Source of the DNA: Octopus sinensis
Taxonomy: Eukaryota
Direction of reading: 5' to 3'
Length of the DNA stretch: 64,000 nt
Assembly: GCF_006345805.1 (NCBI RefSeq)
Contig: NC_043009.1
Coordinates: forward strand, 41,788,001 to 41,852,000
In this document: piece after piece, positions 8,156-53,270 of the stretch
How the letters are laid out: each line of letters opens with the position of its first letter
Numbering within the stretch: position 1 is the first letter of the stretch
Made by a program: the position numbers and the translations under genes
Notes under the pieces: generated by a model
Seen by the model: only the letters and a program-made list of their open reading frames with translations
What the model was told of the DNA's origin: nothing
The model's database searches: none

Positions 8156-8429
8156 TATATATTTCTATAAATAAAACTGAATTTGTGGTTGTGCGTGTGT
8201 GCGTGTATGTGTATGTGTGTGTTTGTGTGGTGGGTATCTACCTTAGGGATTCGTAAATTGAGTTGCCGATTTTGATGTATGAGGGATCAAAAGATTCAGT
8301 AATCTTTCGGCCACCAAATGAAGTATGTTTTTGCACTACTCCTTTTTACTACAAAAATAATCTCGAAAATGAGATCAGGTCGCACAATTTTGAAGTCATT
8401 TTCGGGCAATATTTGGATTTGCTTCTAAT

Positions 8430-8955
8430 CTACGTTGTAAATTTTAATGCTTTTGGTGCCAAAAATGCAGCAATGTACTATAAGTGTTATGAGTCCATTT
8501 ATAATGGACAAAACCCTAGTTGTCAACGGAAAATGACAACAGTTTTTTGAAACAATTATTAGCACATTTTTGTCAAAAATGGTCTCTGTGCTACAACTAA
8601 ACTGCCAATGTGAACGTGTTCTGTATTCCATGATTAAACAAAGACTTCGAAGTATTGTGATATCATTTCTTTGCACAAAGTCATATTTTTCAACAGAAAA
8701 TTGACTAATGAACCGTGTTCTTTCATAATTCTGATCGCTTTGACATTAGTACCGAAAACAATTTGTCCATGCAGATTTTCTTGGTAACAAACGACTCGGG
8801 AATGCCAAAGGAGCGTTCTCAGATTTTAATTCAATAAGATTTCCCCAAGGATTAAGCACAGTAAGAGCATATATACGTTCAAGTGTGGTAAAGACATGAA
8901 GCAATGACTAAAACGTTTCGAGCTTTTTGCCTTTAGCATTTCTCTCTTCATTCGA
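8430..8955 (+). pseudogene. Possible highly decayed Penelope-like GIY-YIG endonuclease end with adjacent degenerate HHR
   Basis: Translation gives AKNAAMYYKCYESIYNGQ (cf. SKNVIY..C..C..YIGQ) and KERSQILIQ*DFPKGLS (cf. RE..WI..L.T..P.GLN). Minus-strand cgaatga agag...ctc GAAA cg TT lies at ~8906-8955. Confidence 0.3.
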
Positions 8956-13749: not shown

Positions 13750-14948
13750 TAATAATAATAATAATAATAACGATGATGATAAAACTAAAGGAATACCTTT
13801 CTCAATGTACATTCAGTATGATAATATCTATTTAAAATAGCAAATATTTAGCAATGCTATTAGTTGACACAATGAAATAATCAGTGTACATTGATGATAT
13901 TAATCTTATCGATCCAGAGATCCCAGTGAAACAGTAATGATATAATAGAGCTATATTTTCACATGAGATATGAGGCCCATTTTTGTAACGGACTTGTATC
14001 AAATGTGATATCAGTGTCGTTCTGGCATATATTTTAGCAACCCAACAGCAGTAATAAAAGGCAAAATACGATTTCATTTCTAATTTGCTACATCCTGTTG
14101 TTGAGTTCAAATAATTCTAATGCTGAAATTTATCATTTATTATTCATTTCTGGGGTGTGTGTGAAGAGTATAAAATATGTGCCAGGAAGTTTACTGGAAA
14201 AAGAAAATGTTTGATCCCTTTTCAATTGGTGATTAGCAAAAATGCTAGTTGTAGCGGGATTTAAAACAAATAGTAAACCTTTTATTTCAATCATCAAATT
14301 AAAAGGAGAAAACTTCGCTTGTATTTCTGTACTTTATTTGTGCAATCTACAAATCTGTGAAATTGCTATGTGTGGGATATTACAGAACATCACATAGCTG
14401 GTAGCGGGAAATTGAATCCAAAACGAAGATAGTCTACTGTAAATAGCAAAATTTCATCATTTGATAACCAAAGGAGAGTCTCTTAAAATATATTGTTGAG
14501 ACACCTAATGGCATTGCAATCGTAAAGATAGATGGCTTCTTCTGGTACACATACACACAGAGGACTGGAATATTACTGTTTGTTTCTCAATTCCACTGTG
14601 ATAATTATTAGGTCGAATATACTCTGTGTGCTTATGCCTGCCTCACAGTCATAATCAAAGAATATTCAGTAAACGTCAGTAAACGTAGTCTACCTGTGAT
14701 ATTAGCCAAACAAAGCAACGCATGGAAGTGTTTATTGGATAGAAATATGGTACAACTGAATCGAAAGACAGAATTTTCGATAAATCCTATAATTATGCAG
14801 AGGTATATATAATCACACAAAAAAAGTATACGTAATTATTCGCCTTTATTTCTGCATCTCGGTGTTCTCATTGCGGCACAGGTCATGCTGGATTTGCGGC
14901 ACAGGTCATGCGGCACAGGTCATTGCGGCACAGGTCATGCTAGCTCAC

Positions 14949-45906: not shown

Positions 45907-47052
45907 GGAGGCGCAATGCCCCAGTAGTTTGTTCACTGATATCTGTTCGTCTCTGGAAAGCCACTGGTTAGTCACAGACCCCACCTAATTTGGCTGCTGA
46001 TATCAGCTGGCTACGTACTGGCATTTGGTTGCATGGGTAGCAGAAATCTCTTCTCAGCTTTTTTGGTGTTGTTTACAGAAATGCAGACAGAACATTTTGT
46101 CCCATCTTGAATGCAGGCTGATTAAATTGGAGAAACAAGCATATGTATCGGGTAAAATCAAATGTAAATGATATAGAACGATATAACTTAGATGTATAGA
46201 AGCCATTTTGGTCACGACATGGAGATAGCGCTTCAATTAATGAATGACATCACACAGCTTCGGTTGAGCATATCTGTAGCAGCAGAACTGACCTAGAAGT
46301 GGAGGTAGTATTTAATTGAGGATTTTCCATAAAGTTTTATAGAAGTTCAACAAATGATATATTTTCTGGTATCAATCTTACTTGTAGTTTTTAGCTTTTA
46401 ATCTAACCTAGAGAAGGTTTTTGTTTATAAATGCTGGAATAATCTCAGCTGATAAAATTTTCTCAAGCATATATGTTACATATATAAGATTCTGTCTCAT
46501 TGATATTGCATACATTTACACATCAATAGCAGTTTTTTTCTTCAAACACTTCGCATGGCTATCAAACTTGGTGACAAAATAAATTCTTTGATATTTATAT
46601 AGCTATTTTCGCTGATGTTGAGACACCAGTAGCCAGCATATTCTAATAAAAAAAACGGTCGTAAACTGCACAAATGTACCGTTAGAATTTGCAACTTAAA
46701 ATACCATTTAGTAAGAAAACCAAGACATTTCTAGTTTTTCCCAATCATAACTACTGCGAATATTTTAGTCTTTTAATATCGTTTTTCAGTATAGTGACAA
46801 GGCCACACATTTAATGTGTGATGCATCTGGAATTACAATTTCCTACAAAATTCCACTTTGAGGGTGTAGAGAGTAAGGACTTCGATTTGAGTGGAAATAC
46901 ATCGACTTTCAAAGCAATCAGGACGTACATATCTAACAAACAATCACTCTCTCTCTCTTTCTCTCTCACTGTATGTATGCATATATATATATATACATAC
47001 ATTAATATATATATAATTATATATATATATATATATATAATAATATATTTAT

Positions 47053-48275
47053 ATATAGAGGGCATTATAATACATGCCAGAAGGCATTATACATACATGC
47101 CAAACGCTAAGAGGGACAATCAGTCATTTCTACAAAAAATATTACTAATCCCACCGAATGCAATTTTTCAAAGTAAGACATTTAAAAATATAGACCTGTA
47201 TCACAGTGATTTCATACTTATAATCATCAGCAGGCCTGAATGTATTATAAATAAACAACGACCCTGCCCCGCTTAAGCCGATCAGCTAACTGATCAACAT
47301 CAACGAAGCACATGGGTGAGTTTACATATAGTACATCCGGTAAATGGCAAACTTTACGAATTGCATTTCGGGAGAGGAAAAAGTTTTTCGGAAAAAAATT
47401 AGCAATTAAGGACAACTACTTAATAAGGAAAACTTAACAAGAAATTGTCAGGTAGATAGGTAAAAACCTCATAGAGAAAAAATTTCGAAAAATAATTATT
47501 TCTTATTGAACATATTAATTTATATATAGAGGGCATTATACATACATGCCAGAAGGCATTATACATACATGCCAAACGCTAAGAGGGACAATCAGTCATT
47601 TCTACCAAAAATATTACTATCCCACCGAATGCAATTTTTCAAAGTAAGACATTTAAAAATATAGACCTGTATCACAGTGATTCATATACGTAATCATCAG
47701 CAGGCCTGAATGTATTATAAATAAACAACGACCCTGCCCGCTTTAGACGATCAGCTTGAGGTTTTTACGCTATCTACCTGACAATTCTTGTTAGTTTTCC
47801 TTATTAAGTAGTTGTCCTTAATTGCTAAATTTTTATTCCGAAAAAACTTTTCCTCTCCCGAAATGCAATTCGTAAAGTTGCCATTTATCCGGATGTAATA
47901 TATGTAAACTCACCCATGTGCTTCGTTGATGTTGATCAGTTAGCTGATCGGCTTAAGCGGGGCAGGGTCGTTGTTATTTATAATACATTCAGGCCTGCTG
48001 ATGATTACGTAAGTATGAATCACTGTGATACAGGTCTATAATTTTTAAATGTCTTACTTTGAAAATTGCATTCGGTGGGATTAGTAATATTTTTGGTTAG
48101 AAATGACTGATTGTCCCTCTTGCGTTTGGCATGTATGTATAATGCCATCCTTATATATAATTAACGGTCAATAAGAAATAAGGTATTTCGAAATTTTTCT
48201 CTTATGAGGTTTTTCGTATATACCTGACCATTTCTTGTGTAAGTTTTCCTATTTAAGTAGTTGTCGTAATTGCTA
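47053..48275. mobile_element. HHR-containing 471-bp unit in tandem + inverted arrangement (retrozyme / non-autonomous Penelope-like candidate, family 1)
   Basis: Unit 47053-47523, partial tandem copy 47524-47756, inverted copies 47758-48147 and ~48150-48275. Flanked by (TA)n, with no meaningful ORF. Confidence 0.75.
47193..47236 (-). ncRNA. Type I hammerhead ribozyme (family 1)
   Basis: Minus strand reads ggcctg CTGATGA ttataagtat GAAA tcactgtga TA caggtc. Stem I is 6 bp and stem III is near-palindromic (atcac-t-gtgat). Further copies at 47664-47706 (-) and 47992-48036 (+) read GAA rather than GAAA; the latter has stem II tac-gtaa-gta. Confidence 0.8.
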
Positions 48276-48294
48276 TATATATATATATATATTT

Positions 48295-49111
48295 ATAAAT
48301 GAGGGCAAAGGAAAAAAATTCTAATTGCCAAAATGCCGCGAAAAATTGGACTATTGTCCATTAACCATAAATTTTTTCCACAATACGCACGCACTCGAAA
48401 AAAAAAGGTCGACAGAAATTCTTAAAAATTCAATGACAATATGTCAATTTTTCGGAAATTTGGCATTATAATTTTTTTCCTTTGCCCTCATTTATGAATT
48501 GTTTATAAATTTAACCGTTAAAGGTATTTTTTAATATGCTGACCATTGATAAAGTTTTTTTCGAGAAAATATTTTTTTTTCGAAAAGAATTTTATCCTCA
48601 CATTTGATATAAATTTGAGCGTTCACTTCCGGACTAACTAACTCACTCTGTGAGAGCCTCAGTTCAAATCTCACGTGCCTCGAATGGGCTGGAGTATTTC
48701 TATTTTGGATATATTTGAGGTACATAGTTGTGCCCATGACTTAGTATTTGCTTCTTCCATGGGTATGAGTAAGTATCTCATTTATTTCTTTTGCCACATG
48801 TACCACTGACGAAGAGAGGGCTCTTAGTAGCTAACTCTGAAATCGGTCCGATATGGTAATAATGGAATATTTTAGAAATTTCTGTCGACCTGTTTTCGAA
48901 TAGCGTGCGTATTGTGAAAACATTATATGGTTAATGGACAATATGTCCAATTTTTCGGCATATTTGGCGTTAGAATTTTTTACCTTTGCCCTCATTTATG
49001 AAATGTTTATAAATTTAACGGTTAAAGGTATTTTTTAATATGCTGACCATTGATAAAGTTTTTTTCGAGAAAATATTTTTTTCGAAAGGAATTTTATCCT
49101 CACATTTGATA
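48295..49111 (+). mobile_element. HHR-containing 502-bp unit, partial tandem with inverted 5' segment (family 2)
   Basis: 48435-48609 is repeated at 48937-49111 (period 502). 48295-48430 is the inverse of ~48865-48999. Flanked by (TA)n. Confidence 0.75.
48801..48858 (+). ncRNA. Type I hammerhead ribozyme, fully canonical core (family 2)
   Basis: Reads tacca CTGACGA agag-agggctcttagtagctaa-ctct GAAA tcggtccga TA tggta. Stem I is tacca/tggta, stem II agag/ctct and stem III atcgg-t-ccgat. Cleavage is predicted after 48853 (AUA). Confidence 0.88.
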
Positions 49112-49192
<81 letters not shown>

Positions 49193-49198
49193 ATATAT

Positions 49199-49346
49199 AT
49201 ATTGTTATATTCCGAATGGTCATATTGCCAGTTTAGCCCAATAAAAACACACGCAATATATATTTGGTGTTATAAATAAACTAATAGAAATAAATAACTT
49301 TATATATCAAAAAACTGGCAATATGAGCATCCGAAAATAACAATAT
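49199..49346. mobile_element. Small MITE-like element with ~35-bp imperfect TIRs
   Basis: atattgttatattccgaatggtcatattgccagttt is inverted relative to aaactggcaatatgagcatccgaaaataacaatat. Confidence 0.65.
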
Positions 49347-49395
49347 TTGTTTCAACACACGACTTCACATAAAATCTTGCCACACCAAATATTTA

Positions 49396-49399
<4 letters not shown>

Positions 49400-49452
<53 letters not shown>

Positions 49453-49846
49453 TAAAAGCAAAGAAGAAAACGCTGACAAAATAATTTAAGTAAGGGAGAG
49501 TGTATTTAATTAGGTGAAAGTTCTTTTTACCGGTTGCGCATTTGTTATGCTTATCAAAAGATATTTTATTAAGAGAGATAGAGTTCCTTTCTGATAGATT
49601 TTTTCTCTTATATATATATAATATATATACACACACATATGCATGCATACATATATATGCATGTATGTGGATATATATATATATATGAACATATGTATAC
49701 ATACATATATATGCTTGTATATATATTCATACGCGTGTATATATATATATATACACGCGTATGAATATGAATGATTTTGTTAGTGATATATATACATATA
49801 CATAAATACACACACACACACATATATATATTATATATATGTATAT

Positions 49847-49880
<34 letters not shown>

Positions 49881-49892
49881 AACATATACATA

Positions 49893-49940
<48 letters not shown>

Positions 49941-50356
49941 GTATATTAATATATATGTATATGTATATATATATACATATATATATATGTGTGTGTGTGT
50001 GTGTATATTTATGTATATGTATATATATCACTAACAAATCATTCATATTCATACGCGTGTATATATATATATATATACACGCGTATGATATATATACAAG
50101 CATATATATGTATGTATACATTGTTTCATATATATATATATATATATCCACATACATGCATATATATGTATGCATGCATATGTGTGTATATATATATATA
50201 TATAAGAGAAAAAAATCTATCAGAAAGGAACTCTATCTCTCTTAAAAAAATATCTTTTGATAAGCATAACAAATGCGCAACCGGTAAAAAGAACTTTCAC
50301 CTAATTAAATACACTCTCCCTTACTTAAATTATTTTGTCAGCGTTTTCTTCATTTG

Positions 50357-52808: not shown

Positions 52809-53270
52809 TCAAAATTCATTCTCACTGCATTGTGTGAAAGTACATTTATATTCATGTAGGGGTCTTGAGAATCGTTCAGAAATTCTATTATTTACCTTCA
52901 CATTAGTCCATAGATTAGACAGGGATTCCTCGGGGCAGAGACGGCATCTCCTGGAAATTATATTGTATGGTTTCGCATATCTTACTACGGACCAATTAAT
53001 GCTGTACTTCGTTTTATCCTCCTCCAGTCGCCATACAAAACCTGCCAAAGATGTTGAATATCTCTTATTAATTGTCTTAAAGCTGGCAACATGGTTACGA
53101 TAATGGTTCTTAAATGAATAAGTCGTCTGCCCAGTGTAAGCATAGGGCCCTTCCCTTGTGTGTACGGTACATTTTATACAAGATTTGTACTCATACAGAG
53201 ATTCATCAAAGGACATTTTGACTTTTCTCCGCATGAGCATTTATCGTATTTATTTGTATATAAGACAGTC
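52809..53270 (-). pseudogene. Penelope-like element Cys-rich linker + GIY-YIG endonuclease remnant
   Basis: DKCSCGEKSKCPLMNLC..NLV/(frameshift)KCTVHTREGPYAYTGQTTYSFKNHYRNHVASF...STSLAGFVWRL...YSINWSVV...PYN...RCRLC matches the PLE pattern CxC..CPL..C..VIYK...YIG.T..FK.RY.NH..SF. Confidence 0.85.

Follow-up and report, generated by a model that had tools for sequence, protein, structure and literature searches.

How retrozymes are mobilized is treated as an open question in a 2026 preprint by Li, Clavereau and Pollet (10.64898/2026.07.22.740005), the main text of which names no mollusc, and mobilization of animal retrozymes from circles by Penelope-like elements (PLEs) has so far been proposed from co-occurrence and from pLTR similarity. 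Among the PLEs, the TA-targeting Hydra clade, which is defined by the RWK, DKT and CxCX5C motifs and inserts in (TA)n, has been described from few families, and one octopus family, Hydra-1_Obim, is given in the supplement of that work (PMC8557442). A one-sided tail of 30-40 bp is a known PLE trait (PMC8557442, PMC3846280), and two internal reverse transcription start sites, used on both strands, have been demonstrated in vitro for a PLE, with a tail length equal to the gap between the two sites (PMC11167929). Our search of openly accessible papers found no description of cephalopod retrozymes or of a counted rule of one start per arm.

In a 64-kb window of the Octopus sinensis genome (the whole stretch of DNA analysed, to which all coordinates refer), two blocks of unrelated sequence, A and B, adjoin at 47053..49111, with (TA)n tracts on both sides and between them, as the initial annotation had described (Table 1). 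The layout of partial tandem plus inverted copies that it reported is likewise present in both blocks, and the arms have now been mapped. A and B are real, young to moderately old, non-autonomous hammerhead ribozyme (HHR) retroelements. The reading that we favor, at a probability of roughly 0.7, is that they are separate TA-repeat HHR families, each copied by a PLE RT/GIY-YIG protein, likely of the Hydra clade, from unit-length and probably circular RNA, and that they are neighbors likely by chance. The PLE-type insertion is read from the insertion ends themselves; the circle step is what we infer for both families. Unit positions are counted from the predicted HHR cut. The left arm of A traverses two predicted cut sites (between 47670 and 47669 and between 47199 and 47198), whereas B has a single HHR at this locus. 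To the right of B, another high-copy repeat lies between TA tracts at 49205-49400, with deep coverage in four sequencing runs, and a 145-nt inverted repeat (99%) with a microsatellite in between occupies 49460-50354, possibly representing another TA-targeted inverted insertion.

Table 1 Features of the A and B blocks in the window, with ends in unit positions
Feature	Window positions	Strand	Description
(TA)n target tract, left flank	46981..47052		
Element A, whole block	47053-48275		minus arm of 1.5 units and plus arm of 1.1 units
Element A, left arm	47053..47756	- (RNA sense on minus)	5′ end at +388; 3′ end at the short site (~+146-152), within (TA)n
A hammerhead 1	47192..47237	-	core intact; 2 nt of stem-loop II missing relative to the family
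A hammerhead 2	47663..47707	-	degenerate, with GAA in place of GAAA and a deletion in loop II
Element A, right (inverted) arm	47757..48275	+	5′ end at +199; long-site 3′ end (~+272-280), within (TA)n
A hammerhead 3	47991..48037	+	GAA for GAAA; predicted cut between 48030 and 48031
(TA)n separating A from B	48274..48292		
Element B, whole block	48293-49111		short minus arm and plus arm of 1.35 units
Element B, left arm	48293..48434	-	5′ end at +9; short-site 3′ end (~+150); without HHR
Element B, right arm	48435..49111	+	5′ end at +83; contains a complete 502-nt period; long-site 3′ end (+255)
B hammerhead	48801..48858	+	intact type I core, stems I-III; predicted cut between 48853 and 48854
(TA)n target tract, right flank	49113..49202		

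Both units are non-coding, in agreement with the initial annotation: the longest ATG open reading frame (ORF) on either strand is 39-41 aa, no RT plus C-terminal GIY-YIG ORF is present, and the layout contains no LTR pair around a body. Their GC contents are 33% (A) and 35% (B). The annotated period of 502 nt is seen here for B, whose family units are ~500 nt long (499-504 nt), but the period of 471 nt belongs only to the window copy of A, where it results from small deletions; the family A unit measures 478-480 nt. Neither unit is single-copy. The exact HHR pattern occurs 2,119 times (A) and 257 times (B) in the genome, against 0 for the reversed-pattern controls, and DNA searches returned 1,298 (A) and 2,744 (B) candidates, about 40 of which were scored for each family. 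The tandem and inverted arrangement recurs at dozens of loci, and the first 100 exact A matches form about 42 clusters, which suggests roughly 900 loci for family A. A and B show no clear homology, their local alignment score of 41.5 falling within the range of the shuffles (30.5±4.4, maximum 49). The words TCAGTT and GTAAGT are present in both units, and we presume them to recall an initiator and a splice donor, respectively, as putative labels. Another HHR repeat of about 330 nt, at positions 1-700 of locus L004, has a ribozyme like that of A (U-U at the base of stem II and a similar stem III) and is possibly an older retrozyme related to A.

The type I hammerhead has the core CUGANGA...GAAA and a standard numbering. 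This core is found in both A and B, together with stems I-III, a palindromic, odd-centered stem III and an AUA triplet, and a descriptor scan of the whole 64-kb window returned two HHRs, one in A at 47230(-) and one in B at 48806(+). The descriptor was matched by 0/2000 dinucleotide shuffles of A and 3/2000 of B. The annotated motif therefore stands for both blocks, although all three window A ribozymes deviate from the family motif, in which stem II comprises a U-U mismatch, 3 bp and a GUAA loop; the small deletions that account for this 0/3 are either mutations or assembly errors. A comparison of the units with the Rfam hammerhead models, which had been suggested at annotation, gave no match to A or B, either at the gathering score or at E<=10. 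In units that were not chosen by motif, the core is intact in 60/63 (A) and 47/51 (B). The stem III palindromes are predicted to form duplexes of -10.1 (A) and -13.9 (B) kcal/mol. However, the isolated HHRs of both families favor non-catalytic folds, as do the predicted MFE folds of the monomers, which counts against our reading.

We scored the insertion ends in position-ordered samples of 40 A and 56 B loci, amounting to 41 and 57 insertions; loci L092 and L197 each add a duplicated copy, and clusters at a locus edge or shorter than 150 bp were omitted. Downstream of the predicted cut, the 3′ ends cluster at two sites, mostly against (TA)n: a short site at +150-160 and a long site at +271-280 in A, and +151-164 and +257-264 in B. 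Inverted insertions make up 27/41 (A) and 36/57 (B), and all of them consist of a partial tandem and a 5′-truncated inverted copy, with the 3′ ends facing outward. One short and one long end are combined in 24/27 of the A inversions, none having two alike and three having one odd end (one locus counted twice). For B, the combination is found in 26/36, with two alike in one and one unclassified end in nine. Simple insertions use either site, with 7 short and 6 long ends in A (n=14) and 12 short and 6 long ends in B (n=21). The flank is TA-rich at 59/64 classified A ends and 64/81 classified B ends; target-site duplications are unreadable, because the flanks are (TA)n. The window locus fits the same short/long rule for A and B alike, and so do autonomous PLE families of this genome (F5, 8/10; F6, 11/15; F7, 5/6; one long/long case). 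The PLE-type insertion that had been proposed for the two blocks is thus borne out by the outward 3′ ends, the inverted partial tandems and the short/long pairing (24:0 in A and 26:1 in B).

The 5′ ends of the A and B arms are scattered. In 6/27 (A) and 3/36 (B) inversions, the unit positions of the two 5′ ends differ by no more than 2 nt, the chance expectation for ends within 5 nt of each other being 0.6 (A) and 0.8 (B), which suggests that a minority of inversions arose by fold-back or from a shared RNA break. Around the start sites, a TAAATT-like word follows all four of them, TGCCCTC precedes the short site in both A and B, and in A a 23-nt direct duplication forms hairpins just upstream of the short site. 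An older B subfamily with 82-89% identity (L128, L193, L121, L200 and L067) has its long end near +220-226, apparently shifted by an internal deletion.

The recurrence of these ends bears on two further explanations, namely that the tandem and inverted layout is an assembly artefact or that A and B form one composite mobile system, both of which we find scarcely credible. The window copies differ by many small indels, as an artefact might, and the locus-specific junctions are absent among the joints listed for run X18 (76% of the run), an absence that is uninformative because repeats interrupt contigs and the insertion may not be fixed among individuals. However, the fixed end rule holds at about 60 loci, and inversion-type A joints do occur in X18 contigs. 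As for the composite, the A-B junction occurs only once in the assembly, which rules out a composite element and indicates two independent insertions in one (TA)n rather than a system. The two arrays also differ in age, since the within-array distance is 0.5-0.7% in A and 4.1% in B, making B the older. Across 147 loci, there are 17 further cases in which another TA-targeting HHR family is located no more than a few kb from A or B. With the junction unique, the ages different and other HHR families piling up likewise, the joint A-B "system" of the initial annotation is not upheld; A beside B is likely a chance pile-up in a shared TA target, and their side-by-side placement is ordinary.

The arrays themselves carry information on the template. 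In A, the substitution distance is 0.5% within an arm, 0.7% between arms and 2.8% between loci, and where the units of an array overlap, a subfamily marker is fixed in every unit in 250 cases, against 7 mixed ones. Rare variants shared by every overlapping unit of both arms number 19 in A and 35 in B, many of them based on only two units. Ongoing homogenization does not explain the shared variants, because B arrays are internally diverged. In loci chosen for at least one intact HHR each, 28/69 A arms cross at least two cuts and one crosses 10; only 4/93 B arms cross two or more, which counts against our reading. A monomer read repeatedly is the simplest account of the arrays, although homogeneous arrays can also arise from linear transcripts of arrays that are themselves homogeneous.

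We consider it unlikely, but worth weighing here, that a PLE mobilized A and B from an uncleaved linear multimer, or from a cleaved monomer with template jumps, so that the HHR would be silent or incidental and the circle needless. An anole PLE was inserted from uncleaved RNA, HHR mutants left its insertion unaffected and no RNA-seq reads ended at the cut (PMC11167929), all of which counts against a cleaved template, and 8/9 Xenopus retrozymes, assayed as dimers, did not cleave in vitro (10.64898/2026.07.22.740005). The predicted A and B folds sequester the core, and only 1/69 A and 3/93 B 5′ ends lie within 8 nt of the cut (2.3 and 3.0 expected), a lack of ends that fits a linear template equally. 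By contrast, rare variants are mostly fixed in all rather than some of the overlapping units (31 versus 14 in A and 51 versus 20 in B), which requires a monomer bottleneck, and 5′ truncation alone cannot lengthen arrays to 10 units. Template jumps across the nick should leave ends at the cut, where no excess is seen, and the core is conserved in two unrelated families.

Repeated copying of a monomer, the reading that we prefer, can also be set beside predicted structure and candidate transcripts. The A and B monomers fold far below shuffles (z of -8.3 and -7.5) into a common predicted outline, in which stem I pairs the cut ends, both start sites sit in the multiloop of a long helix, and a hairpin of ~100 nt lies upstream of the HHR. 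Covariation was rejected as support for this fold, being at chance over all recurrent variants: pairing is kept by 14/23 (A) and 46/82 (B), with 57% expected by chance and one compensatory pair in each family. A post hoc subset of common variants leans to pair-keeping. In run X1, guessed to be RNA and from another individual, contigs of 333, 130 and 107 nt, at depths of 75-106, together cover the complete A unit and span the cut. The longest contig has four letters that are found at 0 of 57-60 genomic loci and at <=0.15% of the depth in run X18, which hints at one transcribed source and not bulk DNA for contigs that show neither strand nor circularity.

Under the favored reading, a tandem A or B copy would be transcribed and would self-cleave at the HHR, and the cleaved unit would be ligated into a circle of ~479 nt (A, and not the 471 nt expected from the window copy) or ~500 nt (B). 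A PLE protein, probably acting as a dimer, would bind the RNA domain holding the two start sites, nick (TA)n on one or both strands and prime reverse transcription. After one nick, either start site could be used, yielding a simple array; when both strands are nicked, each would take a different start site. The enzyme would then circle the template over a variable distance, generating partial tandems, and the 5′ ends of the two arms would be joined head to head. At this locus, B would have been inserted first, and the younger A would later have entered the TA tract beside it. A bolder proposal, which we hold tentatively and at somewhat less than even odds, is that A and B are expressed circular RNA parasites, for which a dimeric Hydra PLE primes both strands, each subunit on a different start of one circle, and then rolls round. 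If true, the arrays would document rolling-circle, two-site TPRT in the genome, explaining the PLE "tail" and inverted insertions generally, and A and B would have arrived at a single RNA architecture from dissimilar sequences.

Where the partner enzyme might come from was addressed in the window and across the genome. The GIY-YIG PLE relics noted at annotation are represented in the window by a relic of a Hydra-type PLE endonuclease at 52812-53257 (-), with its ORF at 52812-53240, which has 15,284 genome candidates, mostly broken, with stops. The longest among its listed relatives is an argonaut (octopod) protein, as would suit a cephalopod host, and no longer homologues were found among 48 candidates. 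This relic was rejected as a parent, since its family (30 loci) holds only stray A/B pieces: a single A-like fragment and a single diverged copy of B, which is oppositely oriented and lies >1 kb away from the match to the endonuclease. Pfam searches of five window ORFs gave nothing informative, the only match being a sub-threshold one to GIY-YIG on P0125. Two short frames at 13835-14116 and 8428-8745 (-) look by eye like decayed PLE endonuclease pieces; they have no Pfam match and no tblastn match to the seven PLE families described next.

Searches with two PLE proteins led to seven families with long open frames, most reaching 700-900 aa, although the examined F6 and F3 frames are partial or chimeric. 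These families bear the RWK, DKT and CxCX5C motifs to varying extent and have their own HHRs with palindromic stem III. Of about 29,500 PLE candidates, 154 were scored, Hydra-type only, and three families (F5, F6 and F7) were scored for ends. The annotated mobilization by PLEs is accordingly retained in part: intact PLEs with matching end geometry are present in the genome, but the family of the window relic is old and mostly broken. The young Hydra-clade families with long open frames are F5 (L242-L245, L299-L328), F7 (L329-L346), F2 (L251), F1 (L214) and F4 (L257). The HHR core of F7 reads CCGAAGA instead of CUGANGA, and the F1 motif is similar. The F6 terminus (L262-L298) has 5,389 exact HHR copies, its long 3′ UTR is microsatellite-like, and many of its inverted pairs are very short and fold back immediately upstream of the HHR core.

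No autonomous parent of A or B was found among the seven families, and blastn (word 7) detected no DNA similarity between them and either unit, which counts against our reading. At the same functional position, the short end of A is similar to the F6 one across 20 nt (p=0.007 uncorrected, 28 tests), a putative match that is a lead only, albeit the best hint of a partner. We judge it very unlikely that the units are pLTR pieces of an unsampled autonomous PLE, that is, ordinary truncated ends. Such an origin would account for an end geometry that is that of PLE termini, the families examined number seven, and Xenopus retrozymes match pLTRs (10.64898/2026.07.22.740005). However, arms longer than one unit run into the next unit and never into an ORF, unlike the F6 terminus, which leads into ORF sequence. 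Moreover, 0/147 A/B loci are joined to a PLE ORF; the nearest PLE protein matches are at least 223 bp away, in separate insertions, so the linkage check suggested at annotation did not reveal the units as ends of autonomous PLEs. Descent of A and B from a pLTR is possible, though the families multiply on their own.

The chance that the partner PLE belongs to another clade (Naiad, Neptune or Poseidon) rather than to Hydra appears very small. Naiads and Neptunes also prefer microsatellites, and cephalopod Naiads are on record (PMC8557442); the tails of A and B (~130 and ~100 nt), and also the distance to the HHR, differ from those of the measured Hydra families (~70 nt). On the other hand, the cephalopod Naiads are long-inactive remnants without canonical HHRs (PMC8557442), whereas A is very young, and intact Hydra ORFs are abundant in the genome, with palindromic-stem-III HHRs. 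We keep Hydra as the likely partner clade.

That the ends of the A and B insertions themselves bear the PLE signature makes for unusually direct evidence of PLE mobilization. The arrays preserve the trace of a monomer template, and the same genome offers mapped start sites as well as candidate enzymes that are young and intact, so that the question of retrozyme mobilization becomes testable in vitro. The strict rule of one start per arm, seen in two passengers and three autonomous families, also constrains models of PLE integration.

A and B belong to the known kind of non-LTR retrozymes, and the class itself is known. They share with these elements tandem units that are short, low in GC and non-coding, each with a single type I HHR, as well as the presence of PLEs, and for both a circle template and PLE mobilization have been proposed (PMC7229834; 10.64898/2026.07.22.740005). 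Their units slightly exceed those of the retrozymes in Cervera and de la Pena 2020 (150-450 bp; PMC7229834) and fall inside the 51-972 bp range of Li et al. (10.64898/2026.07.22.740005). In contrast to the retrozymes as described there, A and B form dispersed short arrays, about two thirds of them inverted, with two fixed ends like reverse transcription starts and (TA)n targeting; their palindromic stem III resembles that of PLEs, no pLTR was found to match them, and circles are a prediction. The non-autonomous Chlamys elements such as MRC1 are likewise PLE passengers with multicopy head-to-tail insertions, but they are from green algae, generally share 3′ sequence with an autonomous family and mostly lack canonical HHRs (PMC8557442). 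With the Hydra-clade PLEs (Craig et al. 2021, PMC8557442), A and B have in common the (TA)n target, an HHR near the 3′ end, and a partial tandem plus inverted copy with a tail on one end. They differ in having no ORF, in a tail of 100-130 nt as against the published 30-40 nt (PMC8557442) and about 70 nt in the local Hydra families, and in the lack of sequence similarity to the seven local families. Poseidon PAc of Anolis (Frangieh et al. 2024, PMC11167929) has, like A and B, two internal reverse transcription starts downstream of the HHR and an AT-rich target, and both of its target strands are cut and extended, as we propose for A and B. Unlike them, it is autonomous and has a shorter start spacing, and no strand preference between its starts was reported in vitro (PMC11167929), whereas the A and B inversions use one start per arm with almost no exceptions.
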